Positions 1-24,390 of a stretch of DNA of 24,390 bases are shown piece after piece (positions within the stretch are counted from its first letter, which is position 1; every line of letters begins with the position of its first letter). Made by a program: the position numbers and the translations under genes. The stretch is taken from assembly GCA_024404275.1 (NCBI GenBank), contig JAKSQG010000005.1, positions 1 to 24,390 on the forward strand. Direction: 5' to 3'. This DNA is from Clostridia bacterium. Its GTDB lineage: Bacteria > Bacillota > Clostridia > Christensenellales > Aristaeellaceae. The notes beneath the pieces are model-generated. The model was not told the origin of the DNA, made no database searches, and saw nothing but the letters and a program-made list of their open reading frames with translations.

Positions 1-1533
1 GACCTGAACTCCGCTGCCAACGGCTTGTTCCGTGTATTGCCGTCCGGCAGACTGCGTCCGCTCATCCGTTTGATTGCGTTTTTGGGTTACCGTAGCTGGA
101 AACCGGTGGAGCTGTTGGAGTATACCTGCGATATCACTGACAGTGAGAAGGAGCTGTCCGCTCAATTGAACAGCCTCAATACGGAGGGCTGGCTGGTGTG
201 GAATGAGGATGGTTACCTGATGCACCCCGTGATTGCGTAGAATCTGCGTCAGGAGCCGGGCGGCTGCGACGAGTATCCGAAGCTGTGGCAGAAGCTGAAC
301 AAAATGTTTGCGGAGCCCATGACTGAAAAAACGCAGGGCTTTGTACCGCAGGCCGAAAACCTGCTGCGCTATACCGCCAATCTGGACCGGACAGCGCTTT
401 CACTGATCATCGGGCTTGAACAAAGCGTCATGACCCGTCCCACGGGCAGCATTACTGATGATCTGCCCAAATTGCACCGCAAATGGCTTGATACCCATGA
501 GCATACGGCGGTGGATGAGATCGATTATCATATCATGCAGCTGCTGTGGGCGATACTGAGATCGCGCCCCGGGCAGTATCGTGACTCCGTGGAAATGCTG
601 AGCGCCTGTGAAGAAAAGGATCTTTTGAGCACTGCCAACTATTCGCTGCTGCTCAACGTACTGGAGGTTGGCGGCAAATATGCCGAACCGGAACAGCTGA
701 ACCTGCTGTTTGAACGGCTGCGGCCCGATGATGACAAACGGATGGTGGATTACTGCAACTTTCTTGGCGGCAAGCTGCGTGCTGTGGATCAGAATCAGCA
801 GCGTGCGGCGGAGGTGCTTCGCCAAGGGCGGGAGCTGATTGAAAAGCTCTGCCTGACGGGAACAGTGCAGGAGGCCGCCAACGATTCCCGCATGGCGTAT
901 ACGCTGGCGGATATGGGTCTGTGGTCGGAAACACTGCCGTTGATGCGCCGTGTGATGGACAACATGAAAACACGCGGTTATGCCGATGATTCGCCTACGG
1001 TGACCCCCATCCGCAGCACCTATTATTTTTTCCTCAGCAAGTGCGGGGAGTATCAGCAGACGCGAAAATAGCTTGGCGATCATCTGAAGCATGTGCTTGA
1101 GAAGGATGAACGTTTTGAAGCCGTCGTGAGGGCGTATACCTCCTATCTGCGCCTTCTGATGGATCACGATGAGTTTGAAGAGGGCGAAAAGATCGCCAGG
1201 AACCTGATTGCATACTGCCGCGGCTGCGTGAATTCAGACCCCGAATTGGAGGGCGAGGCCTTTCTGGCGGGCGGCCGGGTGCTGCTGCTGTGCAGTAAAC
1301 CGGCGGAAGCCATTGGCTTGCTGGCAGAGGCACAAGGCCTGTTTGAAAATGTGGACGAGGGCTCGGTTTTGCAATGCCGGTTCTACACTTCCCGCTGCCT
1401 TGCGGCACTGGGACATACTGAAAAGGCCTCTGCCATGCTGAAAAATGTGCACAATATGCTTCTGAAGCGGCACGAAGGCAACCGGAAACTGCTGACGCTG
1501 GTGGAGCAGGCAGAGGCTGAGGAAACAAAATAA
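1..1533 (+). CDS. 3' part of a large STAND/NTPase-like signalling protein: winged-helix-like segment followed by TPR-like helical repeats. The 5' end lies off-window. Read through two in-frame TAG codons (238-240, 1069-1071).
   Basis: Track ORFs 25-240 (open to position 1), 304-1071 and 1093-1533 are all in frame 1 and separated only by single TAG codons. There is no Shine-Dalgarno before ATG 304 or GTG 1093. Helical-repeat-like sequence continues across both junctions (..GWLVWNEDGYLMHPVIA[TAG]NLRQEP..; ..CGEYQQTRK[TAG]LGDHLKHVLEKDERF..). Final stop TAA 1531-1533. Under the standard code this is three fragments. Confidence 0.55.
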
Positions 1534-2593: not shown

Positions 2594-2619
2594 ACAGAAT
2601 AACAGCGTTCCATGCATAC

Positions 2620-2656
2620 ATCCCCGTACTCCGGAAGGAGCGGGGATTTTTCATTT
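2620..2656 (+). terminator. Rho-independent terminator after the lipoprotein gene
   Basis: ATCCCCG(TA)CTCC-GGAA-GGAGCGGGGAT hairpin (2620-2647) followed by a TTTTT run. Confidence 0.7.
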
Positions 2657-2681
2657 ACAAATCGGCGGAATTGTTGTGAAA

Positions 2682-2725
2682 GTATGCTGAAAGCATACCA
2701 ATCCGGATACGGTTTATGCTATACT
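2682..2725 (+). promoter_or_regulatory. Candidate operator palindrome plus extended -10 promoter upstream of the HTH-kinase-LRR genes
   Basis: Perfect inverted repeat GTATGCT-GAA-AGCATAC at 2682-2698. TG-n-TATACT extended -10 at 2717-2725, with the half-site-like TATGCT repeated at 2715-2720. No good -35. Confidence 0.35.
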
Positions 2726-2757
2726 GAACACAGAAACAGGATGAAAGAAAAGAGTAT

Positions 2758-3237
2758 GTGATGCTTGTGTCAGGAAAAAACGCCATGGACAAACCGAATA
2801 AACGTTTTTCGACCGATGAACTGACCAATGGTATTTTGCGTACGCGGGATTTTAAACGCTATCTGAACAGCCATGCCGAAGCTCTGCAGGAGGTTTCACT
2901 GCGGGAATATCTGGAGCAGCTCCTCCGTGAAAAGGGCTTGAAACGAGCGGAGGTGATTCAGCGTGCCAATCTGGACCGGGTGTTTGGATATCAGATTTTT
3001 GATGGACGCAAATCGCCCTCGCGGGACAAGGTACTGCAGCTGGCCATCGGGTTTGGCTTGAATTATTCATAGACCTGCGAACTTTTGCGCATCGCCCGAA
3101 AAACCGCCCTCTATGCCCGGCTCAAACGGGAGGCCATTCTGATTTACGCCATCGGGCATGGGCTTTCCGTGATGGAAACCCAGTATCTGCTGATGGAAGC
3201 CGAATTGACTCCTTTGGGACAGGAGAAGGACAGATGA
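2758..3237 (+). CDS. XRE-like helix-turn-helix transcriptional regulator, read through in-frame TAG 3070-3072
   Basis: Track ORF 2758-3072 ends at TAG inside the conserved C-terminal segment of this HTH family. The same frame continues TCELLRIARKTALYARLKREAILIYAIGHGLSVMETQYLLMEAELTPLG to TGA 3235-3237, which overlaps the kinase ATG 3234-3236 (ATGA). The start is uncertain (GTG 2758, ATG 2761 or ATG 2785). Confidence 0.72.
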
Positions 3238-6234: not shown

Positions 6235-6271
6235 AAAAACAGCAGGTCTTATCACAATGACCTGCTGTTTT
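6235..6271. terminator. Bidirectional intrinsic terminator between convergent genes
   Basis: AAAACAGCAGGTC (6236-6248) pairs perfectly with GACCTGCTGTTTT (6259-6271) across a 10-nt loop. A-run and T-run flanks serve both strands. Confidence 0.8.
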
Positions 6272-6295
6272 AATGCTTTTTGGTTCATTCGGCCA

Positions 6296-7714
6296 TCAAA
6301 GCGGCGGAATAGCGTCCAAAATGGTTTTTTCCAACGCTTCGCGGCCGTAGCTATCCACGGCAGCCTTGTTCTTTTCACCGTGGGTCAGGTTGCCGGCGCC
6401 GCCGATGCAGCCGCTGATACAGGCCATGCCTTCGATAAAGTTAGCGTCCAAGGCATTATGGGCTTTTTTGATAAGCGCCATGCGACACTCCTCAATACCG
6501 TCACAGACGCAGGCCTTCAGCTGGAAGTCATCCAGATGCTGTTCCTTCAGTCCTTCGGCAACGGCATCGCTCAGACCGCCGCTGCGGGCAAAAATGCGGC
6601 CGAAGTAGCTGGCGTTATTCAGCACATCCTCGGGCAGGGTGGTAATATCGATATCACGGCTGTCGAGCAGTGCCTGCAATTCTTCAAAGGTGATGACGGC
6701 ATCCACATAGGGTTTGACGTCTTCCAACTGTGCTTCGGCCTTTTTCGCGGTGCAGGGACCGATAAATACGATCTTGGCGGTTTCATCATGGTCCTTGATA
6801 TATTTGGCAAGGGTAGCCATGGGCGAGAGATTGTGAGAAATATAGGGCACCAGCGCCGGGAAGGCGGTTTTGACATAGCGGACAAAGGCCGGGCAGCAGG
6901 AGGAGGTCAGGAAGCCTTTTTCCACCAATTCCTTGGATTCCGCCTGGGCAACCATATCAGCGCCCAAAGCGGCTTCGATGACGGTATGGAAGCCCAGCTC
7001 CTTGATGCCGCTGATGACCTGTCCCAGCTTGGCATAATTGAGCTGGCTGCCGATGGCAGGAGCTACCAGGGCATAGACTTTGAATACGCTGTTGTCCTGG
7101 CTTTTTTTCAGCATATCGATCACATTGATGATAAAGGAACGATCCGTAATGGCACCAAAGGGGCACTGATACACACAGGCACCGCACTGAATGCATTTTT
7201 CATCATCGATCTTGGCAGCATTGTCATCATTGATGGAAATGGCCTTGATCTTGCAGGCGTTCTGGCAGGGACGCTTGCGGTTGACGATGGCGCTGTACGG
7301 ACACACCTTGGCGCACTGACCGCATTCCACACACTTGGATTTGTCAATGTGCGCTTCGTGATTGTGGTCAAAGGAGATAGCGCCGCGCTTGCAGACATCC
7401 TCGCAACGGTGGGCCAGACAGCCGCGGCAGGAATCGGTCACCTGATAGCCGACGGCAGGGCAGTCATCACAGGCGATATCAATGACTTGAATGATATTGT
7501 CTCCATTACCGCCTCCCATCGCCAGCTTGACGCGTTCAGCCAGGATGGCGCGTTCCTTGTACACGCAGCAGCGCATGGTGGGGACTTTGCCCGGCACGAT
7601 CATTTTGGGAATGTCCAGCACGTTTTCCAGCAGTGTGTCATTCCATGCCTGACGGGCGACTTCGCGCAGCACCTTGTATTTCAGATATTGTACCTTGGTA
7701 TCAAATTTGCGCAT
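6296..7714 (-). CDS. [FeFe] hydrogenase homologue with ferredoxin-like 4Fe-4S domains (HfsD-like)
   Basis: H-cluster motifs TSSCCPAF, GPCTAKKAE and EGMACISGCIGGAG. Several CxxCxxCxxxCP ferredoxin motifs. AAGGAG RBS. Stop TGA. Confidence 0.85.
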   Translation of the reverse strand: MRKFDTKVQYLKYKVLREVARQAWNDTLLENVLDIPKMIVPGKVPTMRCCVYKERAILAERVKLAMGGGNGDNIIQVIDIACDDCPAVGYQVTDSCRGCLAHRCEDVCKRGAISFDHNHEAHIDKSKCVECGQCAKVCPYSAIVNRKRPCQNACKIKAISINDDNAAKIDDEKCIQCGACVYQCPFGAITDRSFIINVIDMLKKSQDNSVFKVYALVAPAIGSQLNYAKLGQVISGIKELGFHTVIEAALGADMVAQAESKELVEKGFLTSSCCPAFVRYVKTAFPALVPYISHNLSPMATLAKYIKDHDETAKIVFIGPCTAKKAEAQLEDVKPYVDAVITFEELQALLDSRDIDITTLPEDVLNNASYFGRIFARSGGLSDAVAEGLKEQHLDDFQLKACVCDGIEECRMALIKKAHNALDANFIEGMACISGCIGGAGNLTHGEKNKAAVDSYGREALEKTILDAIPPL

Positions 7715-7723
7715 GCGTTCTCC

Positions 7724-8893
7724 TTAAAAATAGCTTACTTTGATTCGTTTACCCATTTTTTTGAGGGCTTGGGACAATTCTTCCACCAAATTCATTTTGA
7801 TGTTGAAGTTGATGGGCAGGTTGGGGTTCTGATGCGCCGGGTTGACGGCTCTGCCTACATAGAAATTGATGTCGGTGGCTTCTTCAAAAAGCAGACGGCT
7901 GATGAGGCAGGCACCGTCCTTGCCGTTGCTCCAGGTCTCATAACACAGGTTATCGCCCGTGTAATCCTTGGCGTATTCCACCACACGGTTGATGGTGATC
8001 ACGCCTTCCGTTACCAGATCGACGCCCTCCAGATAGGCAATGGGCGGAATGTCGCTGTCAAAGTCCAAAGAAGCCCTCAGGGGCTTGTTCAGCCATTTGG
8101 CGGCGATGGAGGAGGTGGTGCCGCCGCAGACGATGTGCTTTCCTTCCTTGGAGAAGAACAGGCTCATCATGCGGTCACCGTCATCACGGTTGCTGGGCGG
8201 TCCGAAGAGCAGATTCATGGGCACGCGCTTGCGGACACGGACCACACAGGAGGTGGCATCATCCCCGGGCTCGCCGCCATACAGCTCATTGCATTTATCC
8301 ACCAACAGGGTGGAAAGGTTCTTGGCGGTATAGCCGCACAGATTCATGGCCTCCATGAAGGGGATGATATCTTCCCGCTTCCAGCCGAAGTTATAGGCAA
8401 TGCCGATGCCTGCGTGGGGGCAGCCGTCGCTCATGGCGATAAAAACATCGTCTTCCTGCAGCCGGATGAGGGAACGGAAGATCTGTTTGCCGCCGATGGT
8501 GCTCTCTGTGCGTGGATATTCATAGTTTTCACCGTTGCGCAGCATGATGACCTGCGGGTTATCATACTGGATCAGCTCTGCCGTCTGATTGCGGATCAGG
8601 CGGATGATGGTGAAGGTGGAATAGGCGACGCCGCGGATGGAGCAGACGGGCAGCGTGGCGGCAATGGTTTCCACGCATTCCTCGATGGAAAGCCCGGCAG
8701 CCAGCATGGTGGAAATGATCTTGCTGGTCAGGGTGGACAGAATGCTGGCTTTGACACCGCTGCCAAGCCCATCTGCCAGCACGATGACGGTGGAGCCGTC
8801 TTCCTGTTCCACAATTTCCACATGATCGCCGCAAAGCTGCTCGCCGGCGTGATTGATGCTTTTGTAGCCGATATCACACGTCAGGTCATTCAT
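7724..8893 (-). CDS. SpoIIE/PP2C-family protein phosphatase (HfsC-like)
   Basis: N-terminal GDHVEIVEQEDGSTVIVLADGLGSGVKASILS and ..AMSDGCPHAG.., DDATSCVVRV are PP2C/SpoIIE-type motifs. The start overlaps the hydS stop by 8 nt (ATGAATGA). Stop TAA. Confidence 0.85.
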   Translation of the reverse strand: MNDLTCDIGYKSINHAGEQLCGDHVEIVEQEDGSTVIVLADGLGSGVKASILSTLTSKIISTMLAAGLSIEECVETIAATLPVCSIRGVAYSTFTIIRLIRNQTAELIQYDNPQVIMLRNGENYEYPRTESTIGGKQIFRSLIRLQEDDVFIAMSDGCPHAGIGIAYNFGWKREDIIPFMEAMNLCGYTAKNLSTLLVDKCNELYGGEPGDDATSCVVRVRKRVPMNLLFGPPSNRDDGDRMMSLFFSKEGKHIVCGGTTSSIAAKWLNKPLRASLDFDSDIPPIAYLEGVDLVTEGVITINRVVEYAKDYTGDNLCYETWSNGKDGACLISRLLFEEATDINFYVGRAVNPAHQNPNLPINFNIKMNLVEELSQALKKMGKRIKVSYF

Positions 8894-10562
8894 TGTTGAT
8901 GGACTCCTTCAGCTTTGAGAGGGCAATCTTGGTTTCGGCGGCAGTTTCACCCAGCAGACTGGCAATTTCCTGCACGATACGCATCTGTTTGTCGACGACC
9001 TTGTCGGCTACTTCGACCGTCTGGCGCCGGATGTCTTCCTTCTGCTGACGGGCAGCTTCTTCCTCGCTGACGTCACGCATAATGCACAGCAGCATACGTC
9101 CGCCCTCAGCGGGAACGATGGTCTGCTCCACGGTACAGTTGTATTCCGCCAGATAGGTGCGCTCGTTAAAGATACCGCGGCCGGAGTTTTTTACCTTCAT
9201 GAAGGGGATGGGGTCCAGAATGCGGACAACCTGATCTCCCAGCACGGCACTTTCGGAGCGCAGATTCAGGATCTTGCGGGCAGCGGGGTTGATCTGCTGC
9301 ACTTCCAGCTGATCGTTGAGCATCAGGATGCCGTTGGGGCTGTTGCGGGCAATGGTATCGCTGACGTTTTCCGCTTTTTCCATCAGGTAAGGCAGGCACA
9401 TGGAGGGCTCCGCCTTGCCCTGATAAATGGCGATGGCTTTTTCACGGCAGGTATTGTAGCCGCAGGAGCCGCAGTTCAGCTCCTGAGAGGGTTTGAACTT
9501 GCCCATTTCACGCAGAATATCGCGGATCTCAAATTCAGTGGGCAGGGCGGCGCGCTGCTCGATGGGGGCAAAATGCTTGCGCAGCTCCTGTGCTTCGGGC
9601 TGATCGATCTCAAAGTCCTTATCACCGGCGTAACGGGCGACAGCCAGATAATCCTTCACCGGGCTGTGACCGTATTTTTCCATCACGGGACCGCCGGCAC
9701 AACTGCCCACGCAAGCGCTCATCTCGATAAAGCAGCGATGGATCTTGCCCTGCTCGATCTCCTTCAGTGCGGCGATGCAGTTTTCAATACCATCGAAAGC
9801 GATATAGGTATAGCCCGGGGCATCCTGTGCCATGGTTTTCAGTACGCCGCCGGTGGTGGGAAAGAAACGTGCCAGACTATGTTCATCCGGCTGCTTTTCC
9901 TGACGAAGTTCAACGCCTTCCTTTTTAAGCCAGTTGGTCAGCTCTTCAAAGGTCAGCACCGCGTCAACGATGCCCTCGTAGTGCTCCGCTTCATCCTTCT
10001 TTGCCACGCAGGGACCGACAAAGACGGTCTTGGCGCCGGGAATACGGCGCTTGATGTCCTCACAGTGCGCCTGCATGGGGGAAAGTACATCCGCCAGATA
10101 GGGCAGCACACGGGGGAAATGCTTCTGAATGAGCAGGTTGATGGAGTGGCAGCAGGAAGAGATGACGATGTCACGGTTTTCTTCCTGCAGAATGCGCTCG
10201 TATTCCCGCTTTACAAGCGTAGCGCCCAAAGCGGTCTCTTCCACATCGTGGAAGCCCAGCTTTTTGAGCGCTTCCCGCATGGCTTCAATGCCCACACCAT
10301 CATAGTTGGCAACAAAGGACGGCGCCAGAGAGACGACCACCGGGGCGCCGCTCTGAATGAGAACCTTTGCCTTTTCGGTCTGGTCCACGATCTCCTTGGC
10401 ATTCTGCGGGCAGACGACAAAGCAATGACCGCAGAGGATGCACTCATTGTCGATGATGTGAGCCTGGTTGCCGGAAAAACGGATGGATTTTACCGGGCAG
10501 TGACGGATGCACTTATAGCAGTTTTTGCAGTTGGATTTTTTTAAAGTCAGGCAGTTTGGCAT
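8886..10562 (-). CDS. hydS: Putative sensory [FeFe] hydrogenase with C-terminal Cys motif and PAS domain (HydS / HfsB-like)
   Basis: N-terminal 2x[4Fe-4S] ferredoxin motifs. H-cluster motifs ISSCCHS, GPCVAKKDE and EMSACVGSCAGGP. CGSCGYNTCx16C motif, then a PAS-like segment (NSPNGILMLNDQLEVQQINPAARKIL..). Stop TGA. Confidence 0.85.
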   Translation of the reverse strand: MPNCLTLKKSNCKNCYKCIRHCPVKSIRFSGNQAHIIDNECILCGHCFVVCPQNAKEIVDQTEKAKVLIQSGAPVVVSLAPSFVANYDGVGIEAMREALKKLGFHDVEETALGATLVKREYERILQEENRDIVISSCCHSINLLIQKHFPRVLPYLADVLSPMQAHCEDIKRRIPGAKTVFVGPCVAKKDEAEHYEGIVDAVLTFEELTNWLKKEGVELRQEKQPDEHSLARFFPTTGGVLKTMAQDAPGYTYIAFDGIENCIAALKEIEQGKIHRCFIEMSACVGSCAGGPVMEKYGHSPVKDYLAVARYAGDKDFEIDQPEAQELRKHFAPIEQRAALPTEFEIRDILREMGKFKPSQELNCGSCGYNTCREKAIAIYQGKAEPSMCLPYLMEKAENVSDTIARNSPNGILMLNDQLEVQQINPAARKILNLRSESAVLGDQVVRILDPIPFMKVKNSGRGIFNERTYLAEYNCTVEQTIVPAEGGRMLLCIMRDVSEEEAARQQKEDIRRQTVEVADKVVDKQMRIVQEIASLLGETAAETKIALSKLKESINNE

Positions 10563-10566
10563 GGCG

Positions 10567-10806
10567 TTACACCCTTGCTTTGATTACATTTTCGAAAAAG
10601 GTGGGAACAGTCTCGGGGGAAACGGAAAAGAATTCACCGTCTACCGTGACGCAAACGCCCTGCTGGCATTTGCCCATGCAGAATGTGCCGCCCAGCTCGA
10701 TCTTGTCACTGAGGTTTTCCTTCGCAATCAGCGCCTGAAGCTGCTCCACCACGGGACGAGAGCCTTTGATGTGGCAGGAAGAACCGATACAAACCGTAAC
10801 CTTCAT
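10567..10806 (-). CDS. Small thioredoxin-like [2Fe-2S] ferredoxin (HfsA-like)
   Basis: 79 aa with four Cys in VCIGSSCH ... FCMGKC. GGAG RBS 9 nt upstream of the ATG. Stop TAA 4 nt before the hydS ATG. Confidence 0.75.
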   Translation of the reverse strand: MKVTVCIGSSCHIKGSRPVVEQLQALIAKENLSDKIELGGTFCMGKCQQGVCVTVDGEFFSVSPETVPTFFENVIKARV

Positions 10807-10908: not shown

Positions 10909-11658
10909 TTAATGATATTCCACCACGTTGGCCCAGGACAGCAGGAATTCTCTTTCCTTTTCCTTGCCCTTGACGGACTGGCTGGCGGCGACGATGGGCA
11001 TCCACTTCTGCACATACTGCAGGGGGGTGCCGCTCTTTTCACAGAACAGCTTCAGGTATTCCTTGGCGCCGTCGATATCGCCGTTCAGCCAGAACAGCAG
11101 ATAGGTACGGGCAACATCGGCGGAGGCGTTGCCCTGCGTGACATGGCTCCAGTCGATCACGTAAGGGGTGCCGTCCTCGCTGATGATCACGTTGGAGGGC
11201 CAGAAATCGCCGTGACACACTTTGCTGTGATTGGGCATACCCTCCAGACGGGCGTGAAGATCAAAACGGGTGGTGGCATCCAGGTCAGCCTGGCTGATCT
11301 TGCGCTCCATCTTGTCCCTGAGGCGGTTCAGATGGGAACAGCTCTTGCTCTGGATCTCCAGCTGCAGATCCACAAACTGATTGAGGTATTTGTCCTTGTT
11401 GTCCGGGTCTTCTTTCATCAGCTGGGACAGGGTTTTGCCCTTGATGAACTCAGAGATGATGGCCCATTTTCCATCGATCATGGTGACACCCAGGAGCTTG
11501 GGAATGTGCAGCCCGGTCTCTTCAATGCGCGCCTGGTTGAGCGCTTCGTTGAGGATGTCGGCTTTGGAGTGACTTTCATCGAACACCTTGATGCAGCGGT
11601 CACCGTCACGGTAAATGGTTTTGTCGTTGCGTACGGCAATAACGCGATCCAGATTCAT
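10909..11658 (-). CDS. Aminoglycoside-phosphotransferase/choline-kinase-fold (APH-like) kinase
   Basis: CHGDFWPSNVII and YVIDWSHV (HxDxxxxN / DxS Brenner-type motifs). GAAGGAGG lies 8 nt before ATG 11658. The track ORF starts 7 codons earlier. Stop TAA. Confidence 0.8.
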   Translation of the reverse strand: MNLDRVIAVRNDKTIYRDGDRCIKVFDESHSKADILNEALNQARIEETGLHIPKLLGVTMIDGKWAIISEFIKGKTLSQLMKEDPDNKDKYLNQFVDLQLEIQSKSCSHLNRLRDKMERKISQADLDATTRFDLHARLEGMPNHSKVCHGDFWPSNVIISEDGTPYVIDWSHVTQGNASADVARTYLLFWLNGDIDGAKEYLKLFCEKSGTPLQYVQKWMPIVAASQSVKGKEKEREFLLSWANVVEYH

Positions 11659-11675
11659 CTTTTTTGTCCTCCTTC

Positions 11676-14378
11676 TCACAGCTTACGGCCGGGACGATAG
11701 GCTTTTTTCACCGCGTCGTTTCCCGGCTCGGCAATGTTAGCCTCAGTGGGCTTGGCCATCTCGGTAAAGTGCTTGCCGCCGTAATAGGCGTTCAGGTACA
11801 TCTGCTTGATCTCGCTCATCAGCGGATAGCGGGGATTGGCACCGGTGCACTGATCGTCAAAGGCCTGCTCCACCATGTCATCCAGTCTGGTCAGGAAATC
11901 CTGCTCATCGGGAACATAATCCTTGATAGTGGGCTTGATCCCCACATAAGCCTTCAGATTGTTGATCATCTGAATCAGGGCTTCCAGCTTTTCATGGTCG
12001 GTGCCCTGGTTAATTCCCAGCGCCTCGGCCACCTGCGCGTAGCGGCGCAAGGTATGGGGATGATCGTACTGAGGGAAGGTGCCCATCTTGGCAGGAGCTT
12101 CGCAGGCGTTGAAGCGCAGCACTTCTTCGATCATCAGAGCGTTGGCTACACCGTGAGGAATGTGATGGAAAGCACCCAGCTTGTGCGCCATGGAGTGGCA
12201 GACACCCAGGAAGGCGTTGGCAAAGGCCATGCCGGCCATGGTGGCTGCATTAGCCATTTTCTCACGAGCTTCCACATCTGTCAAGCCATTGTCATAGGCT
12301 TGAGGCAGATATTCAAAAATGGTTTGCAAAGCTTTGATGGCAAGGCCATCTGTATAGTCCGTCGCCATCATGGAGGCATACGCTTCAAGGGCGTGGGTGA
12401 CGGCGTCGATGCCGCTGGCGGCGGTCAGACCCTTGGGAGCGGTCATATGGAAATCGGTATCGATGATCGCCATGTTGGGCAGCAGAGCATAATCGGCAAG
12501 GGGATATTTGACACCGCTCTTTTCGTCGGTGATGACGGCAAAGGGCGTTACCTCACTGCCGGTACCGGCGGAGGTGGGAATGGCGACAAAATAGGCCTTT
12601 TCGCCCATCTTGGGGAAGGTATAAACACGCTTGCGGATATCCATGAAGCGCATGGCCATGTCCTGGAAATCCACTTCGGGATGCTCGTACAGCACCCACA
12701 TGATTTTGCCGGCGTCCATGGCGCTGCCGCCGCCCAGAGCGATGATCACATCGGGCTGGAACAGACGCATCTGTTCCGCGCCGGCCTTGGCGCAAGCCAG
12801 GGTGGGATCGGGCGCGACGTCAAAGAAGGTTGCGTGCTGAATGCCCAGTTCATCCAGCTTCTTGGTGATGGGGGCGGTGTTTCCGTTGTGATAAAGGAAA
12901 GAGTCGGTGACGATAAAGGCCTTCTTTTTGCCCATAACTTGCTTCAGTTCGTCCAGCGCCACCGGCAGGCAGCCCTTTTTGATATACACCTTCTCCGGCG
13001 TACGGAACCACAGCATGTTTTCTCTCCTTTCAGCCACGGTTTTGATGTTCAGCAGGTGCTTGACGCCCACGTTTTCGGATACGGAGTTGCCGCCCCAGCT
13101 GCCGCAGCCGAGGGTGAGCGAGGGGGCCATCTTGAAGTTATACAGATCGCCGATACCGCCCTGCGAGGAGGGGGTGTTGACCACGATACGGCAAGTCTTC
13201 ATCTTGGCGGCAAAGGCATCCAGCACATCGGGCTTCTTCTGCGTATCGATGTACAGGGAGGCAGTGTGACCGTAGCCGCCATCGGCAATCAGACGATCGG
13301 CTTTGGCGAAGGCATCATCCAGATCCCTGGCACGGTACATGGCCAGCACGGGGCTCAGCTTTTCATGGGCAAACTCTTCACTGAGGTCCACAGATTCCAC
13401 TTCACCGATGAGCACCTTGGTGCCTTCGGGAATGGTGACACCGGCCAGCGCGGCGATCTTACAGGCGCTCTGACCGACGATCTTGGCGTTCAGGGCACCG
13501 TTGATCAGGATGGTGTGGCGCACCTTGTCCAGATCGGCACCGGTCAGGAACCAGCAGCCTCTTTGAGCAAATTCGGCTTTCACCTGATCGTAAATGCTGT
13601 CCAGCACGATCACGCTCTGCTCGGAAGCGCAGATCATGCCGTTATCAAAGGTCTTGGAATGGATGATGGAGTTGACAGCCAGCACAACATTGGCACTGTC
13701 ATCGATGACAGCAGGCACGTTGCCCGCACCGACGCCCAGTGCCGGCTTGCCGCTGGAATAAGCCGCCTTGACCATGCCGGGACCGCCGGTGGCCAGAATG
13801 ATATCGGCTTCGCGCATGACCATGTTGGTCATTTCCAGAGAAGGGACATCGATCCAGCCGATGATGCCTTCAGGAGCGCCGGCTTTGACCGCAGCATCCA
13901 GTACCACCTTGGCAGCGGCAATGGTGGCCTTCTTGGCGCGGGGATGGGGGCTGAAAATGATGCCGTTGCGGGTCTTGAGGCAGATCAAAGCCTTGAAGAT
14001 GGCGGTAGAGGTCGGGTTGGTCGTGGGGATGACGGCGGCGACCACGCCAATGGGCTCAGCCAGCTTTTTGATGCCGTAGGCTTTGTCCTCCTCGATGACG
14101 CCGCAGGTCTTGGTATCGCGGTAAGCGTTGTAAATATATTCACTGGCATAGTGATTTTTGATGACTTTGTCTTCCACTACGCCCATGCCGGTTTCTTCAA
14201 CGGCCAGCTTGGCCAGAGAAATACGGGCCTGATTGGCAGCGGTGGCAGCGGCCAGGAAAATGCGGTCCACCTGCTCCTGAGTATAGGTCGCATAGATGCG
14301 CTGCGCTTCGCGTACGCGCTTAATGGCGGCTTCCAGCGCTTCGGTGTTGTCCACCAGATCAAATGCTTTGGTTTCCAT
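11676..14378 (-). CDS. adhE: Bifunctional acetaldehyde-CoA / alcohol dehydrogenase
   Basis: 900 aa. ALDH domain with catalytic FDNGMICASEQ. Fe-ADH domain with GGGSAMDAGK and His-rich metal motifs. AGGAGG lies 6 nt before ATG 14378 (the track ORF begins 38 codons upstream). Stop TGA. Confidence 0.97.
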   Translation of the reverse strand: METKAFDLVDNTEALEAAIKRVREAQRIYATYTQEQVDRIFLAAATAANQARISLAKLAVEETGMGVVEDKVIKNHYASEYIYNAYRDTKTCGVIEEDKAYGIKKLAEPIGVVAAVIPTTNPTSTAIFKALICLKTRNGIIFSPHPRAKKATIAAAKVVLDAAVKAGAPEGIIGWIDVPSLEMTNMVMREADIILATGGPGMVKAAYSSGKPALGVGAGNVPAVIDDSANVVLAVNSIIHSKTFDNGMICASEQSVIVLDSIYDQVKAEFAQRGCWFLTGADLDKVRHTILINGALNAKIVGQSACKIAALAGVTIPEGTKVLIGEVESVDLSEEFAHEKLSPVLAMYRARDLDDAFAKADRLIADGGYGHTASLYIDTQKKPDVLDAFAAKMKTCRIVVNTPSSQGGIGDLYNFKMAPSLTLGCGSWGGNSVSENVGVKHLLNIKTVAERRENMLWFRTPEKVYIKKGCLPVALDELKQVMGKKKAFIVTDSFLYHNGNTAPITKKLDELGIQHATFFDVAPDPTLACAKAGAEQMRLFQPDVIIALGGGSAMDAGKIMWVLYEHPEVDFQDMAMRFMDIRKRVYTFPKMGEKAYFVAIPTSAGTGSEVTPFAVITDEKSGVKYPLADYALLPNMAIIDTDFHMTAPKGLTAASGIDAVTHALEAYASMMATDYTDGLAIKALQTIFEYLPQAYDNGLTDVEAREKMANAATMAGMAFANAFLGVCHSMAHKLGAFHHIPHGVANALMIEEVLRFNACEAPAKMGTFPQYDHPHTLRRYAQVAEALGINQGTDHEKLEALIQMINNLKAYVGIKPTIKDYVPDEQDFLTRLDDMVEQAFDDQCTGANPRYPLMSEIKQMYLNAYYGGKHFTEMAKPTEANIAEPGNDAVKKAYRPGRKL

Positions 14379-15915: not shown

Positions 15916-17388
15916 ATGCCGATGCTGATCACTTCAAGGGTTTTCTGGGGTGCGCTGGTGGCCGTTGTGCTGTTTTCGCTCTTTTTTATTTTGTATCGGA
16001 AGTTCTTTTTTGAAAAAGGGCACACGGTGCACAAGGTCCTGCTGGCGTTGTACTCATTGTACATCGGCGGACTGTTCGTAATGATCCTGTTTCCCAACTA
16101 CATGCTGCGGCCGTTTCGTTTTTCCACGGCACGTGTAAATTTGATTCCCTTCAAGGCATTTCATCGGCTGATGACCGACCCGAAGGAACTGATCGGCAAT
16201 CTGCTTCTGTTTGTGCCCTTTGGCTTTTTCTCAGTGCTGAATGACCGGGTCAAGGCAGGACGCCGGCTGCTGAACGTGCTGTGGCGGACGGCACTGATCA
16301 GCGCGGCAATGGAAGTGCTGCAGATGTTTATCGGCCGCGTTACGGACATTGACGATGTGATCATCAATACCCTGAGCGGTCTGCTGGGCGGCGCACTGTG
16401 TGTCATCTGGCATAAGACGCGGCTGGATCACACCCCCTTGGGGGATAAGCTGATGCCGGAGCTGCCCAAGCGCTGGCGCGGCAAGATGGCGGTGCCGCTG
16501 CTGTCCCTGATCATACTGATCGTCTACAGTGTCGGGCTCATGTCGGCCAACGCCATTGTGACCCGATCGATGGGCAGAGAGTATGCTGCTGAAATCAACG
16601 GTGAGACACGACATTTTTCCCTGGATGCGGAAAATGCCCTGCTGTGGGACCGTACCGGGGAAAAGGTGCTGTTTGCAGTAAACGAGCAATCCGGCATCTT
16701 CCCCGCCTCAACCATCAAGCTGGTGCTGGGACTGACAACATTGGATGAGGTTTCTCCCGATGAAAGGGTCACCGTGGGCCGGGAAATTTTGCGTGTGCCG
16801 ATGGATTGCTCAAGGGCGGGCATTGCCATGGGAGCGACCTACACGGTGCGGGAGTTGCTGGCAGGTTCACTGATCACCTCAGGCGCTGACGCCTCCTATG
16901 TGTTGGGCGTATTTTGCGGAAGGGTCTTGCTCGGAAACCCGAACGCCTCGGAAACGGAAGCATTGAATGCCTTCCTTGCCGCGGCGAATGCAAAGCTCCA
17001 AAGCCTGGGCGCTCTCAATACCACGGTGAAAAACGTGGATGGTCTGGATGTCGAGGGGCAGCTGACCACGGTGGAGGATCTGTGCAGGATCGCTTCCGCA
17101 GTGTTGGATGATCCGGTGCTGTCTGAAATCTGCGGCACACCCGAGATGACGATCGGTACGGGAAACACCGCTCTCACACTGAAAAACACCAATGCGATTC
17201 TGCGGGAAGAAAGCGAATTCTTTGAGGCGGATTGCGTGGGCATCAAAACGGGAGCGACCTCCCGTGCAGGCAACTGTCTGATTGCTGCGTTCCGAAAAGA
17301 TGGACAGGAATACATTACCATCGTGATGCATTCGGGCTATGACGGCAAATTTACCGATACGCTGACGCTGGCCGATCTGGTGCTGTAA
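15916..17388 (+). CDS. VanZ-like membrane domain fused to an S11-type D-alanyl-D-alanine carboxypeptidase domain
   Basis: N-terminal multi-TM VanZ-like region (..LLLFVPFGFF.., ..DIDDVIINTLSGLLG..). C-terminal SxxK = STIK, KTG = IKTGAT, and the SxN position reads SGA. Alternative start ATG 15922. Stop TAA. Confidence 0.85.
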   Translation: MPMLITSRVFWGALVAVVLFSLFFILYRKFFFEKGHTVHKVLLALYSLYIGGLFVMILFPNYMLRPFRFSTARVNLIPFKAFHRLMTDPKELIGNLLLFVPFGFFSVLNDRVKAGRRLLNVLWRTALISAAMEVLQMFIGRVTDIDDVIINTLSGLLGGALCVIWHKTRLDHTPLGDKLMPELPKRWRGKMAVPLLSLIILIVYSVGLMSANAIVTRSMGREYAAEINGETRHFSLDAENALLWDRTGEKVLFAVNEQSGIFPASTIKLVLGLTTLDEVSPDERVTVGREILRVPMDCSRAGIAMGATYTVRELLAGSLITSGADASYVLGVFCGRVLLGNPNASETEALNAFLAAANAKLQSLGALNTTVKNVDGLDVEGQLTTVEDLCRIASAVLDDPVLSEICGTPEMTIGTGNTALTLKNTNAILREESEFFEADCVGIKTGATSRAGNCLIAAFRKDGQEYITIVMHSGYDGKFTDTLTLADLVL

Positions 17389-17420
17389 CGAGGATCGGTC
17401 GGGAAGGGAGATGACTGCCG

Positions 17421-18590
17421 GTGAACTATCGGGTTACGGATGGGGTGCTGACGCTGTTTCCGCAAGGCCGGATCGACTCCGGCAATGCAGACAGCACGGA
17501 AAAGGAAATGCGGGCTGTGTGCGTGGCAAACGCCGTCCCGGGACTCATACTTGACCTTGAAAAACTGGCGTATATCTCCAGCGCCGGGCTTCGGGTGGTG
17601 CTGCGGCTGCGCAAGGACTATCCTGAAATGAAAATGATCAATGCTTCCGCCGAAGTATATGACATTCTGGATATGACCGGTTTTACCGAAATGATCCCGG
17701 TGAGCAAGGCGTATCGCCGCCTGAGCATTGAGGGATGCGAGATGATCGGTCAGGGGGCAAACGGCACGGTATACCGTCTGGATGGGGAGACCGTGATCAA
17801 GGTGTACCGCCATGCCGACAGCTTGCCGGAAATCCGGAGAGAAAGAGAACTTGCCCGCAAGGCATTCGTGGCAGGTCTGCCGACTGCTATCCCCTATGAT
17901 GTGGTACGTGTCGGGGAGGGCTATGGCTCGGTGTTTGAAATGCTGAATGCCGGTTCAGTGGCCGATATCCTCAAAAAGGAGCCATAGCGACTGCCGGAGT
18001 GCGCGCACATGATGACCACACTGCTGAAGAAGATCCATGCTACTGAGTTAAAGCCCGGGGAATTTCCCGATGCAAGGCAGACAGCCCTGGACTGGGCGGA
18101 TTTTTTGCAGGACCATCTTCCGCGTGAGCAGTATCAGAAGCTGCGTGGACTGATCGAGGCAGTGCCGCGGGATACGCATGTGCTGCATGGGGATTGTCAT
18201 GTGAAGAATGTGATGATCCAGAATGGGGAGACGCTGCTGATTGACATGGACACCCTGTGTCAGGGGCATCCGGTGTTTGAGTTTGCGGCGATCTATATCG
18301 ATTATCAGGGATACGGCGAACTGAATTCCGAAGATGTCACGACATTTTTCGGCATCCCTCATGAAATCTGCGCGGAATTGATGCGTTTGATCATTGTAGA
18401 GTATTTTGAACTGAAAGAGGAAGCCGCCTACCGCGCAATACTGGACAAGGCGCGCGTAATCGGCTATGCACGGCTGATGCGCCGTACCATCCGCCGGATG
18501 GGGCATACGGAACAAGGAAAGCAGCTGGCTGCCTACTACGCAGAGCGGCTGACGGAGCTGCTGGACTGTGTGGATTCACTGACATTTTAA
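17421..18590 (+). CDS. STAS (anti-sigma-antagonist-like) domain fused to an APH/protein-kinase-fold domain, read through in-frame TAG 17985-17987
   Basis: Track ORFs 17421-17987 and 18009-18590 share a frame. STAS motif LAYISSAGLRVVL. Kinase N-lobe IGQGANGTVYRL..VIKVY lies before the TAG. Catalytic HGDCHVKNVMI and LIDMD lie after it. GTG start with GGGAAGGGAG upstream. Stop TAA. Confidence 0.7.
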
Positions 18591-18904: not shown

Positions 18905-18946
18905 GCAGCGGGACAACTCGTAGCATCGGCAAGGGAGATATGGAGA

Positions 18947-19762
18947 ATGACGACGGAAGAACTGCTGAAAACGGTGGAAGAGATTCATGTGCCTTTGGAG
19001 GACACCTACCTGAATGTCATCCGCTTTGGACGTGGAAAAAAAGTGCTTGCGTTGCTTTCGGGTGTCAGCCTGTGCGGTCTGGAGGGAGCGGGAGCAGGCG
19101 TTGCGGCTGCTTACGCCGATTTTGCGGAGGAGTATACGGTTTATCTGTTCGACCGCAAAAAGCTGCTGCCAAAGGGCTATCAGGTGGCGGACATGGCGGA
19201 GGATGTTTATCGGGTGCTCTGCACCTTTGGCATTCAGGAAGCCGACGTGTACGGCGTCTCCCAGGGCGGCATGATGGGACTCAGCCTGGCACTGGCGCAC
19301 CCCGGTCTGGTGCGGAAGCTGGCACTGTGTTCTACCCAGGCTCGGGCGGGAAGCGTCATGCGTTAGACCGTTGCCGAGTGGCTGCAATATGCCAGACGAG
19401 GGGACACAGCAGGCATTCAGCGTTGCTTTGCGGAAAAAGTCTACTCACCGGCTTACCGTGAAAAGTACGCATCGGCTTTCCGGGCTATGGAGCAGCAGGG
19501 ATCGGCTGAAGACTGCGCCCGTTTTGTGGTATAGGCGGAGGCATGCCTCACTTTTTGCGTTTATGAAGAGCTGGACCGGATCCATTGTCCCGCGCTGGTG
19601 CTGGCGGATGTGAATGACCGTGTGATCGACGTGTCCTCTGCCCGGGAGCTGGCGCATGGGTTGAACTGCCCGCTGCAGTTGTATGATCAATACAGCCACG
19701 CGGTGTTTGATGAAGCGCCCGAAGTAAAACAGCGGGTGCTGAACTTCCTGCGGCAGGAATGA
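18947..19762 (+). CDS. Alpha/beta-fold hydrolase (RsbQ-like size and context), read through two in-frame TAG codons (19364-19366, 19532-19534)
   Basis: Track ORF 18947-19366 carries the nucleophile elbow YGVSQGG. The same frame continues through both TAGs to ..CPALVLADVNDRVI..LYDQYSHAVFDEAPE..FLRQE and TGA 19760-19762. That supplies the Asp and His of a catalytic triad. The merged protein is 271 aa. Confidence 0.75.
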
Positions 19763-19826: not shown

Positions 19827-21617
19827 ATGAAGCTGCCGCTGCAACGGCATCCAAAGGAATCCTACAGTACCATGACGCGGGCAGTACTGTGGCAGAATGA
19901 AATAGAAGCCAACCGACTGACCACGGTTTTTATGTGCATCTGTTCGGCGGTCATGGCACTCAGTATGCTGCTGACGGCTGTTGGTATTTTTACGGAGAAT
20001 GCGCAGACAGTGTATACCACGGGCATCGCGACGATCGTGTGGCATATGCTGCCGTGCCTGGTGAGCTTTCGATACAAATACGCAAAGCCGTGGCTGAAGA
20101 ACCTGCTGCTGGCGGGGTTGATTCTGGGACAGGCACGATTGGACTGCGGGCTGGGTTTCAATACGGCACTTTCCATACTGATTCCGGTTGTGTTCAGTAC
20201 GCGGTATTACTCCCGAAAGTTTACGCTTTCCGTGGCTGCCATTACGACCGTGGTGTTTTCTGTCACGACCTATCTGGGCGCTGCGACGGGCTTTACCCCG
20301 GTGGATAAAAATATTCTTCTGGAAGCGTCCCGGTATGCGCATGATGTCATGATGACCAGCTTTCTTCCCAAGTGGTTTTTATTTGCGGTCATCTCGGCTG
20401 TGTGCGCGGAGGTTGCCCACTGGGGGCGTGCTATGGTTGAAAAGCAGGCCGTCATCAGTCAGGAGCATAGCCGTGTGGAAACGGAGCTGCATACGGCAAC
20501 CCAGATTCAGTTGAAATCGCTTCCCGATGTGAAAACGCTGTGCGAAGGACATGAGGCTCCCTTTGAACTGGCGACCAGCATCCTTCCGGCCAAAGAGGTC
20601 GGCGGCGATTTTTACGATTTCTTCTATGTTGACCCAACGCACCTGGCATTGGTCATTGCAGATGTTTCCGGCAAAGGCGTGCCGGCAGCGCTGTTTATGA
20701 TGGTTTCTAAAATCCTGCTGGATAACAGCGCTTCCGCAGGGCGAACGCCCGGCAAGGTGCTGACGATGGTCAACCATCAGCTTTGCGAAAAAAACATCAT
20801 TGACATGTTTGTGACAGTGTGGCTGGGCATCATCGACTTGACCACCGGCGAAATTGTCAGTGCCAACGCGGGACATGAGAACCCCATCATTTGTCGTAAG
20901 GACGGCACTGTGGAAGTCATCCGTACCAAGCACGGCATGGTGCTGGGCGGCATGGAAGGCATGCGTTACCGGGATGAAACCCTTCAGCTGCACCCCGGCG
21001 ATACGCTGTTTGTGTATACAGACGGCATCCCCGAAGCGCACAACAGCGCCGCGCAGATGTATGGCATGGAACGACTGGTTTCGGTGCTGACAGGCAAAAC
21101 ACAGATGAATGCGCAGGCCCTTGTGGACTTGGTGAAGCAGGATGTGAATGCTTTTGCCGGTTAGGCACCGCCGTTTGACGACTCGACCATGCTGGCGATT
21201 CGCCTGAATGGCCTTGTGAAGCGGGAGGGACTGCAGATTCGTCCCGACACGGCATCGGTCAGCACCGTGCAGGAGTATGTTGCGCAGGCAATGGAGCAAG
21301 CCGACATTCCCATGAAGCAGGCCACCAAGGTCAACATCGCATTGGATGAAATGTACAGCAACATTGTGCATTACAGCGGAGCGGGCTGGGCAGAGGTGAT
21401 CTGCCGGGCTGACAAAAGCGGGGTCACGCTCATCTTGCGGGATAACGGCGTGCCGTTCGATCCGCTGCAGAATGCCGCCCCTGACATCAATCAGAGCGCG
21501 GAAGAGCGCCGCATCGGCGGCCTTGGCGTGTTTATGACCCGCAAGATGATGGACGAGATGTGCTACCGCTATGCGGACGGATGCAATGAACTGACTATGA
21601 CGCTGAAGATCAGCTGA
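19827..21617 (+). CDS. Membrane-anchored PP2C (RsbU/SpoIIE-type) phosphatase fused to an RsbW/SpoIIAB-like HATPase domain, read through in-frame TAG 21162-21164
   Basis: Track ORFs 19818-21164 and 21189-21617 share a frame. N-terminal multi-TM region. PP2C motifs EVGGDFYDFF, ADVSGKGVPAALFM and VYTDGIPEA lie before the TAG; [TAG]APPFDDSTMLAIRL follows it. Then HATPase N-box DEMYSNIV, DNGVPFDP and GGLGVFM. AGGAG lies 9 nt before ATG 19827. Stop TGA. Confidence 0.75.
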
Positions 21618-23162: not shown

Positions 23163-23298
23163 GAAGAAAGTGAAAAACGTGGAAAAAAATAAAAAAACGT
23201 TAGCTTTTTGGTACACTTTTGGAGCGGAATTCAAGGGGGCATGTGCTATAATCATGCCGATGAATCGAAATTCATTTTCGAAAAGGAGATGTTCTACG

Positions 23299-23883
23299 AT
23301 GAAAAAAACGCTCTCTGTCCTGTTGGTTATGATTCTGTTGGTTTCCGCGATTCCCTTCAGCGGCCTCGCCATGGAAAACCCTTTCGGTGAAGCCTGGGTC
23401 AAAACTGCCAATGGCAAAACCGTCAATGCCCGCCGCACCCCCACCACGAATGCGGACAACATTATCTATGAGCTGCCCTACGGCTTCAAGGTGATGATCA
23501 TCGGCTATGAAAAGAATGCCCAGTGGGCGCTGTGCGATATCGGTAATGGCGTGAACGCGTACATCATGACCCGCTATCTGTCCCGCACCAATCCCGGCAA
23601 AAAGCCCACCCCCACCGTGACTCCCCAGCCGACCGCCAAGCCCGAAACGATCGACTACAGCTCCTTCAGGTATGTGACTCCCTACACCGCGTATGTACGT
23701 CCCAGCAGCCCCACCGGTTTTGTCAATCTGCGTTGGGCGCCCAGCAAGTCCGTTCAGGTCATTGCCATCTATTATCAGGGCAGCCCGCTGACGGTCATCG
23801 CTCAGGGCCACAACTGGTGTCAGGTGCGTGACGAAGTCAACGGCTTTACCGGATTTATGATGAGCTCTTTCCTGACCCGCTGA
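23299..23883 (+). CDS. Secreted protein with two bacterial SH3-like domains joined by a Pro/Thr linker
   Basis: GGAG lies 10 nt before ATG 23299 (the track ORF starts at 23161). Signal peptide MKKTLSVLLVMILLVSAIPFSGLA. Two repeats of the type ..V(N)AR..P....VI..L..G..V.. ..W..V. Linker NPGKKPTPTVTPQPTAKPE. Stop TGA. Confidence 0.85.
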   Translation: MKKTLSVLLVMILLVSAIPFSGLAMENPFGEAWVKTANGKTVNARRTPTTNADNIIYELPYGFKVMIIGYEKNAQWALCDIGNGVNAYIMTRYLSRTNPGKKPTPTVTPQPTAKPETIDYSSFRYVTPYTAYVRPSSPTGFVNLRWAPSKSVQVIAIYYQGSPLTVIAQGHNWCQVRDEVNGFTGFMMSSFLTR

Positions 23884-23913
23884 AACTGACTGTTTATCAA
23901 GGAGGAACAAACA

Positions 23914-24390
23914 ATGAAAAAGCTGTTTGCTGTTGTGCTGGCACTGATGCTGGCGATGACCGCTTCCCTTTCCCTGGCAGAAGGCACTGTTGTGCAGATG
24001 GGTGCGAACTATGATATCACCATCGATGTGCCCGCCGGCTATACGATGAACAAAATTCTCTCCGGCAGTCTGGTCATGGCGGATTTTGAGCCTGCCGATG
24101 CCGCTGCCGCAAAGTACACCCTGGTGATCGAGTACAGCGAGGAGTTTGGCGATTACATCCTCAACGACCTGACCGCCGAGGAAACGGCCCAGATGAAGGA
24201 AATGCTGACGGCGGACTTTGCCGATGCAGTTGTTACTTTCCCCACGACCAAGGCCGGTACCAAGCTGATCCAGATCGATGAGCAGGGCTCCGAAAGCGAA
24301 TATGGCTTCGTCCTGACCATCTATCATGGCTATTTTGTCCAGATCACGCTGACCAAGGCGAACGGCGTACAGCTGACCGCCGAAGAGTAT
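23914..24390 (+). CDS. Secreted protein of unknown function; 3' end off-window
   Basis: AAGGAGG RBS at ~23899-23905. ATG 23914. Signal peptide MKKLFAVVLALMLAMTASLSLA. The frame is open to the window end, so it is absent from the ORF track (no stop). Confidence 0.8.
   Translation, partial: MKKLFAVVLALMLAMTASLSLAEGTVVQMGANYDITIDVPAGYTMNKILSGSLVMADFEPADAAAAKYTLVIEYSEEFGDYILNDLTAEETAQMKEMLTADFADAVVTFPTTKAGTKLIQIDEQGSESEYGFVLTIYHGYFVQITLTKANGVQLTAEEY

Follow-up and report, generated by a model that had tools for sequence, protein, structure and literature searches.

To our knowledge, no sense reading of UAG other than as pyrrolysine (Pyl) has been documented in bacteria. Pyl decoding, as in Acetohalobium, Desulfitobacterium and Bilophila, is defined by pylTSBCD together with TAG codons in the methylamine methyltransferase genes (mttB, mtbB and mtmB), and it can also read through incidental TAGs. 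The nuclear code of peritrich ciliates (NCBI table 30) reads UAG/UAR as glutamate (Glu). UAR is likewise read as Glu in Blastocrithidia nonstop, as reported for that organism (PMC12153298). All known bacterial stop reassignments involve UGA and none involves UAG, according to the 2021 Codetta screen (PMC8629427); UGA is read as Trp in the Mycoplasmatales and insect endosymbionts and as Gly in Gracilibacteria and Absconditabacteria, which are lineages with reduced or low-GC genomes. In gut phages that use code 15 (crAss-like, Lak and other phages), amber codons are reported to be decoded as glutamine (Gln) with the aid of suppressor tRNAs, and gene callers split the genes at TAG (10.1101/2021.08.26.457843). 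Our literature search found UAG sense decoding reported only for Pyl, for these TAG-to-Gln phages and for eukaryotes, and for nothing else in bacteria. Here, we describe a 24,390-nucleotide stretch of a Clostridia bacterium genome (contig JAKSQG010000005.1; the whole stretch is referred to as the window), in which a gene encoding a fusion of a STAS domain and an APH-type kinase carries an in-frame TAG codon. We consider it on balance probable, from comparative sequence evidence, that TAG is translated as a sense codon throughout the lineage formed by the window and a sister metagenome-assembled genome (MAG; GCA_045599485.1), most probably as Glu. The MAG that contains the window is designated GCA_024500545.1 in our analysis.

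The window shares features with each of these systems. As in the peritrich and Blastocrithidia codes, UAG occurs in frame at Glu codons across many unrelated genes, presumably decoded by a Glu-type CUA tRNA; however, those codes are eukaryotic nuclear codes that include UAA and are ancient and pervasive, whereas the present case is bacterial and limited to TAG, with in-frame TAGs at ~0.1% of codons and with young sites that are not the same in the two sister genomes. The bacterial UGA reassignments are likewise chromosome-wide and concern a codon that was rare as a terminator beforehand (here, TAG ends 2/44 outgroup genes), but in our case the codon is UAG and the genome has a GC content of 54%. 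The window differs from the code 15 phages in that its genes are chromosomal (AdhE, a hydrogenase operon and partner-switching genes) and the aligned residues favor Glu rather than Gln. In contrast to Pyl decoding, the TAGs described here occupy Glu positions, and the genes that carry them are regulatory and unrelated to one another. If our reading is true, a free-living gut Clostridium with a 54%-GC genome that reads UAG as Glu would represent a new bacterial code.

The STAS-APH gene starts with GTG at 17421 (GGGAAGGGAG upstream) and ends with TAA at 18588-18590, and its merged product is 389 amino acids (aa) long. With X placed at the TAG, the Pfam APH profile (PF01636) gave one continuous match over residues 109-292 (profile positions 5-210 of 239, E=1.4e-17). 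The N-terminal half alone matched only profile positions 5-74 (18 bits, under the cut-off), and the C-terminal half alone matched only positions 141-210. Given that the halves match complementary parts of the profile, they are two pieces of one domain rather than two complete domains, and this complementarity is far beyond chance expectation. Upstream of the TAG lie IGQGANGTVYRL (residues 109-120) and VIKVY (residues 125-129), and downstream lie HGDCHVKNVMI (residues 256-266) and LIDMD (residues 273-277). An AlphaFold2 model of the merged protein, built on a 25-sequence alignment, folds as one unit with a mean predicted local distance difference test score of 90.4 and a predicted template modeling score of 0.74, and places residue 189 in the short loop that connects helix 180-186 to helix 191-206. 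A Foldseek search with this model matched complete APH(4)-Ia, APH(2''), Cph and choline-kinase structures, with about 290-340 columns aligned. One kinase fold is thus split by the TAG at 17985-17987, which was the claim of the initial annotation and is borne out by the spanning Pfam match, the AlphaFold2 model and the whole-kinase Foldseek matches. The motifs that the initial annotation had quoted and the STAS domain that it had placed upstream of the TAG are all present in frame, and the 21 nt between the TAG and the next ATG (17988-18008, ahead of ATG 18009) do encode RLPECAH in frame. The profile search that it had proposed on the merged translation returned a single continuous domain across the TAG. 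It had named two contrary outcomes, namely independent complete domains in the two halves and separate genes in related genomes; we found complementary parts of one profile instead, and in relatives the gene is fused, with an Asp codon at this position in the sister genome (locus L001).

The family to which this gene belongs consists of STAS-APH fusions (PF01740 plus PF01636), which are annotated as "anti-sigma factor antagonist" or "phosphotransferase" and are uncharacterized; their APH part resembles TIGR02172. The focal gene encodes both domains in one ~390-aa polypeptide with the family motifs and a single bilobal fold, is colinear with the other members and keeps all catalytic motifs; it differs from them in its in-frame stop, which was seen only here and in the sister-genome orthologue. 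A database search with the focal protein returned 7,966 homologues at E <= 1e-10. Among the matches listed, all 120 are STAS-APH fusions without interruption, 380-394 aa long, and the top one shares only 64% identity with the focal protein. In an alignment of 24 full-length colinear homologues (57-65% identity), the residues G112, N114, G115, K127, H256, G257, D258, H260, N263, D275 and D277 are invariant and are present in the window protein, and the column of the TAG is variable (E9, A6, D3, G3, S2 and Y1). The only close relative among the GTDB species genomes was JAZRWA010000035.1 ("Clostridia bacterium SGB_3710", GCA_045599485.1; loci L001 and L009), which shares 88% nucleotide identity with the window and has an AdhE that is 96.7% identical. 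This sister genome has GAT (Asp) at the site of the focal TAG. Its kinase gene has an in-frame TAG of its own 52 codons upstream, at a position where the window has GAA and 24/24 distant homologues have Asp, which gave the first indication that the lesion at the focal TAG has counterparts elsewhere. In exact-sequence look-ups, neither half of the focal gene nor the upstream peptidase matched any record, and a scan of JGI metagenomes with the merged focal protein found no relatives. For a 200-aa segment spanning the TAG, the closest match in a protein search was the fragment from the sister genome itself.

We re-called the open reading frames (ORFs) of the window with TAG as a sense codon and checked each one against Pfam, NCBIfam and orthologues. 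In total, 7 in-frame TAGs were found in 5 genes (Table 1). The STAND NTPase gene at the left edge of the window is available in full in an independently assembled contig of another strain (L010, positions 2062-4908, 948 codons), where it contains three TAGs, including both of those in the window; the third, just left of the window in the same gene, is the eighth TAG of the window strain lineage. Single Pfam domains extend across TAGs in three genes besides the kinase. In the hydrolase, Abhydrolase_1 matches residues 76-258 across X140 and X196; in the PP2C fusion, SpoIIE matches residues 270-460 across X446, and TAG 21162 sits directly before the FDDSTML motif; and in the sister genome, Fe_hyd_lg_C matches residues 74-292 across X224 of a 558-aa HydS-like sensor. 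The sister locus L009 contains three in-frame TAGs, all at positions other than those of the window, in the kinase, in this sensor and at codon 31 of a 389-aa SpoIIE phosphatase, and the TAG "terminators" among its called genes (3/3) are precisely these in-frame codons. Combined, there are 11 in-frame TAGs in 8 genes (7 in the window, 1 in L010 and 3 in L009), and Pfam domains span 6 of them. Two of the flanks read ADILKKEP-TAG-RLPECAHMMTTLLK and DVNAFAG-TAG-APPFDDSTMLAIR.

No in-frame TAA or TGA was present in these TAG-bearing loci, and the orthologues do not differ in length, hence there are no indels. By the codon usage of the window, 48% of the single-step routes to a nonsense codon lead to TAG, which makes the probability of seeing TAG at 7/7 disruptions 0.006; the same arithmetic gives 0.483^11, or ~3e-4, for 11/11, with frameshifts left out of both values. 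Frameshifts normally make up a large share of inactivating mutations in bacteria, and the probability would drop much further if they were counted as alternative disruptions.

Eight of the TAG sites have a comparator, and the residue in the nearest relative is Glu at five of them and Asp, Lys and Gln at one each. TAGs 19364 and 19532 of the hydrolase correspond to GAG in the sister genome. TAG 3070 of the regulator corresponds to GAG in an 85%-identical orthologue (L011) and to Glu in 35/40 homologues. Of the sister-genome TAGs, the one at L009 position 420 is matched by Glu in 4/4 orthologues, the one at 9962 by GAA in the window and the one at 1510 by CAG (Gln) in the nearest relative. The nearest relative has Lys at TAG 21162, with L001 providing an intact 596-aa orthologue. 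Glu exchanges most commonly with Asp, Lys and Gln. Summed over the TAG sites, BLOSUM62 scores amount to 25.8-30 for Glu and to <= 16 for every other residue. The probability of at least 5/8 Glu, given the share of GAG among single-step precursors of TAG, is 0.008, a value that comes from eight sites and into which the GAG-to-TAG route itself enters as a confounder. Glu is thus our best guess for the decoded residue, with the same two limits of site number and mutational route.

We compared the window with L009 by the Nei-Gojobori method (dS ~0.4) to obtain ratios of nonsynonymous to synonymous substitution rates (dN/dS). In the STAS-APH gene, dN/dS was 0.068 before the focal TAG and 0.209 after it, and in the hydrolase, it was 0.098 upstream and 0.152 downstream of the TAGs; TAG-free neighbor genes had values of 0.05-0.19. 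These ratios show that the TAG-bearing genes were clearly under purifying selection, on both sides of the TAGs, for most of the time since the window and L009 diverged. We reached outgroup loci through AdhE, with 91% AdhE identity for L006 and 88-89% for L007 and L008, and these loci share the synteny of AdhE, APH, thioredoxin (Trx)-like, sensor, PP2C and hydrogenase genes. None of the 44 genes called in the outgroup loci contains an in-frame TAG, which confines the trait to the lineage of the window and L009. Stop codons in these 44 genes are 2 TAG, 16 TAA and 26 TGA; the LysR orthologue of L007 ends at TAG with a length near that of the window's LysR (309 versus 308 aa). The in-frame TAG trait thus arose in a clade that already made little use of TAG as a terminator, which is the precondition expected for codon capture. 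We dropped the lack of TAG terminators as evidence for reassignment, given that the outgroups seldom use TAG either.

Logan assemblies of run SRR17543910 provided contigs that differ from the window by 0.1-1.3%, through ordinary mixed substitutions and without indels. L010 (99.90% identical) reproduces the TAGs at 238, 1069 and 3070, and L002 (98.7% identical) reproduces TAG 19364. These TAGs were found in assemblies of non-identical strains, indicating that they are present in the reads and are not artifacts. L005 (99.76% identical) has AAG (Lys), at its position 538, in place of TAG 21162. L002 begins at window position 18011, 24 nt past the focal TAG, and no other record covers that codon; together with the AAG in L005, this contig break hints at a TAG/sense polymorphism in the sampled population. 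Among the NCBI proteins MCQ2453086-MCQ2453101, two identifiers are left between those of the peptidase and the 98-aa STAS protein, and another four separate the STAS protein from the CAAX protease. Judged from accession numbering alone, this suggests that the TAG-split pieces entered the public annotation of GCA_024500545.1 as separate proteins and not as pseudogenes or recoded genes.

Taken together, it is likely from these comparisons that TAG is translated by some route in this lineage. The initial annotation had proposed read-through at the focal codon, and it was right in effect, given that translation through the TAG is the best explanation, but too narrow in scope, given that a programmed signal specific to this gene is unsupported; the phenomenon is a lineage-wide tolerance or decoding of TAG and not a recoding signal in the focal gene. 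For the reading that we favor, lineage-wide decoding as Glu, we propose that a tRNA with a CUA anticodon, probably accepting Glu, would decode UAG efficiently and that release factor 1 (RF1) may be weakened or lost. The ribosome would then read TAG 17985 as sense and produce the full 389-aa STAS-APH kinase, and this protein is probably an intact, expressed signaling protein rather than the product of a dead or split gene. The three TAGs in the 948-codon STAND gene imply that decoding would need to be efficient rather than leaky for that gene to be expressed. In-frame TAGs would arise mainly by a G-to-T change in GAG and occasionally from AAG, CAG or GAY; new ones would settle at Glu positions or at ones that tolerate change, most readily in regulatory genes with weak expression; and they would persist as close to neutral, differing between sister species and remaining polymorphic within populations. 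It is possible, and we suggest it only tentatively, that the lineage represents the first bacterial reassignment of UAG to a canonical amino acid (Glu), at an early stage, with codon capture or an ambiguous intermediate in progress.

Several observations weigh against the reading that we favor. TAG 21162 is polymorphic at 99.8% identity, no TAG position is common to both sister genomes, and all of the TAGs are young, so that an inactivation in the very recent past could escape dN/dS. AdhE and the [FeFe] hydrogenase contain no TAG, and the TAG-bearing genes are all regulatory or accessory. At the focal TAG itself, the sister genome has Asp and the column is variable in distant homologues. The enrichment of Glu could partly reflect a mutational bias from GAG to TAG and not the decoded residue. 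True TAG terminators are absent from ~40 genes of the lineage, a deficit that is not significant (P ~0.16) beside the outgroup frequency. Translation through TAG, the inserted residue and the tRNA or RF1 basis are inferred from sequence comparison. The sequence read from the lineage amounts to ~50 kb, in which no CUA tRNA was found and Pfam searches returned no pyl or methylamine methyltransferase genes. Scans of the window and of L006-L009 detected no tRNA. At positions 1-55 (+ strand) of L010, ~3.3 kb left of the window, the contig end truncates a tRNA-Arg(CCG) gene to its 3' part, and a terminator hairpin comes after it. Its anticodon loop, in an Rfam match, reads CU-CCG-AC, and hence it is no suppressor; the gene call at L010 1-837 over this fragment is probably spurious.

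We considered that TAG could be translated lineage-wide but not as Glu, by Pyl, by a suppressor tRNA for Gln, Lys or Tyr, possibly borne by a phage or plasmid, or by near-cognate decoding after loss of RF1. The evidence of TAG tolerance is identical for this explanation, and the nearest relative does have Lys (AAG) and Gln (CAG) at two sites. Given that E, K and Q are all single-step precursors of TAG, the residue pattern may record the mutational origin of the codons and not their meaning, and phages that read TAG as Gln with suppressor tRNAs are common in the gut, according to the source cited above for code 15. We nonetheless regard non-Glu decoding as rather unlikely. Glu is nearest at 5/8 sites, including two conserved Glu columns, whereas Gln is nearest at 1/8; with 187 CAG codons in the window, synonymous C-to-T changes from CAG to TAG should dominate under Gln decoding and do not. 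The Pyl variant would involve pylTSBCD and would place a bulky residue at conserved Glu positions, which is a non-conservative change, and TAGs that encode a unique residue should coincide in the sister genomes, where none does.

The main residual rival is that these are ordinary recent nonsense mutations, with TAG still a stop and the TAG-bearing genes being young pseudogenes under relaxed selection. The TAGs are lineage- or strain-specific, none being common to the window and L009, and TAG 21162 is polymorphic; the genes hit are all accessory or regulatory; a single G-to-T change separates several of the sites from GAG; and dN/dS is somewhat higher downstream than upstream of the TAGs. All of this would fit, but the spectrum of disruptions would not, given that 11/11 are TAG, with no TAA, TGA or indel, although GAA (302 codons) outnumbers GAG (192 codons). 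Three TAGs in one gene and two in another, without other decay, are also difficult to reconcile with inactivation, as is the retention of four TAGs in other strains. Ratios of dN/dS of 0.07-0.21 on both sides of the TAGs, and of 0.15-0.21 downstream, are far below 1. Moreover, about a quarter of the genes in 24 kb would be dead, compared to none in 44 outgroup genes. We therefore consider the pseudogene explanation decidedly unlikely.

Programmed read-through specific to the focal TAG would yield two isoforms, a STAS-plus-N-lobe fragment and the full-length kinase. The fold does continue in frame across the TAG, and a short STAS-with-extension product could in principle act like an antagonist. 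This explanation is largely refuted by the non-conservation of the TAG, with GAT in the sister genome and sense codons in 24/24 homologues. The 120 nt 3' of the TAG fold no better than shuffled sequence (z=+1.09; 169/200 shuffles fold at least as well), the base that follows TAG at the 11 sites is A, C or G with no common context, and six further TAGs lie in unrelated genes of the window, which leaves this form of the initial proposal very improbable.

A truly split gene, in which the C-terminal half is re-initiated at ATG 18009 and two polypeptides assemble into the kinase, seems to us hardly plausible. A GGAG lies 9 nt upstream of this ATG and the gap is only 21 nt, but the GGAG is Pro-Glu coding sequence that reads GGAA in the sister locus L001, and the other 10 TAGs lack a Shine-Dalgarno-like motif. 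Re-initiation there would skip 4-40 codons, some of them within conserved motifs, and no split pair occurs among the homologues found, nor does either half match a database entry.

A sequencing, assembly or binning artifact deserves almost no credence. The window does come from a MAG, its focal TAG is seen in one assembly only, and TAG 21162 is AAG in a near-identical contig. Four other TAGs, however, are reproduced in the Logan assemblies, a different MAG from another project has the same phenomenon at other sites, and the strain differences are ordinary mixed substitutions without indels. The editing motif of TadA-type A-to-I activity is TACG. Such mRNA editing is rejected, given that the TAGs lack this context, as are a recoded prophage, given that 21 kb with chromosomal housekeeping genes in between separate the outermost TAGs, and a G-to-T hypermutator, which would leave the absence of TAA from the more numerous GAA codons unexplained.

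If lineage-wide decoding of TAG as Glu is true, a reassignment would have been caught early and while still polymorphic, which would bear on the debate between the codon-capture and ambiguous-intermediate models. Standard table-11 annotation would fragment the genes of these genomes, and completeness and pseudogene statistics would be distorted. The lineage may also be accompanied by recoded phages or by suppressor tRNAs usable as orthogonal tools.

Table 1. Coordinates of the TAG-bearing genes of the window, the stand-alone STAS gene and the elements of the STAS-APH gene
Feature	Coordinates	Strand	Basis or remark
STAND (NB-ARC) NTPase with TPR repeats, C-terminal 510 codons; TAGs 238-240 and 1069-1071	1..1533	+	Gene begins left of window edge
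Helix-turn-helix (XRE-like) regulator, 150 codons; TAG 3070-3072	2785..3237	+	1,776 uninterrupted homologues; TAG also in L010
STAS + APH-type kinase fusion gene, 389 codons, one in-frame TAG	17421..18590	+	Pfam, homologue alignment, AlphaFold2 model
STAS domain, residues 2-96	17424..17708	+	PF01740, E=2e-14; PDB sequence matches are SpoIIAA-type STAS proteins only
APH / protein-kinase-like domain, residues 109-292, TAG inside it	17745..18296	+	Single Pfam APH match; alignment; Foldseek
Gly-loop of APH domain	17745-17780	+	Motifs invariant in homologue alignment
Lys strand of APH domain	17793-17807	+	Motif invariant in homologue alignment
Focal in-frame TAG, codon 189	17985..17987	+	Sequence; loop at N-/C-lobe junction in AlphaFold2 model
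Catalytic HGDxHxxN of APH domain	18186-18218	+	Motif invariant in homologue alignment
IDMD metal-binding motif of APH domain	18237-18251	+	Motif invariant in homologue alignment
Stand-alone STAS protein, 98 aa	18608..18904	+	Pfam
Alpha/beta-hydrolase, 271 codons; TAGs 19364-19366 and 19532-19534	18947..19762	+	Abhydrolase_1 spans both
Membrane PP2C (SpoIIE) + HATPase_c_2 (RsbW-like) fusion, 596 codons; TAG 21162-21164	19827..21617	+	Pfam, intact L001 orthologue

The stand-alone STAS protein and the membrane PP2C-RsbW-like fusion adjoin the STAS-APH gene, and by its predicted gene content, this neighborhood is a partner-switching-type signaling module. The ORFs 10912-11700(+), 6257-8899(+), 18940-19461(+) and 23272-24327(-) were rejected as genes, being antisense or wrong-frame artifacts. 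The second of these is the longest + strand ORF (880 aa); it has no Pfam match and is an antisense artifact of minus-strand genes. The true minus-strand genes in this region lie at 6296-7714, 7724-8893, 8886-10562, 10567-10806, 10909-11679 and 11676-14378; between them they encode AdhE, an APH-like kinase, a 79-aa 2Fe-2S thioredoxin-like protein, a HydS-like sensory Fe-hydrogenase with a PAS domain, a PP2C (SpoIIE) phosphatase and an [FeFe] hydrogenase. This layout is kept in L006-L008 and looks like a hydrogen-sensing regulatory module beside AdhE. The gene at 10909-11679 (-), directly downstream of AdhE, encodes a second, stand-alone APH / TIGR02172-like kinase of 256 aa that is kept in all relatives examined, and the + strand ORF 10912-11700 "ending in TAG" is its antisense shadow. 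Toward the left end of the window, a Ser/Thr kinase ORF at 3234-4127 (+) (Pkinase, E=1.5e-31) shares 190 nt with an LRR-repeat ORF at 3938-4945 (+) in another frame, so that either the LRR gene begins after its first GTG or a kinase-LRR fusion carries a frameshift. In L009, just outside the stretch homologous to the window, positions 16707-18359 encode a PqqD-family protein followed by a radical-SAM enzyme and several small ORFs, an arrangement that resembles a maturation cluster of the type found for ribosomally synthesized and post-translationally modified peptides.

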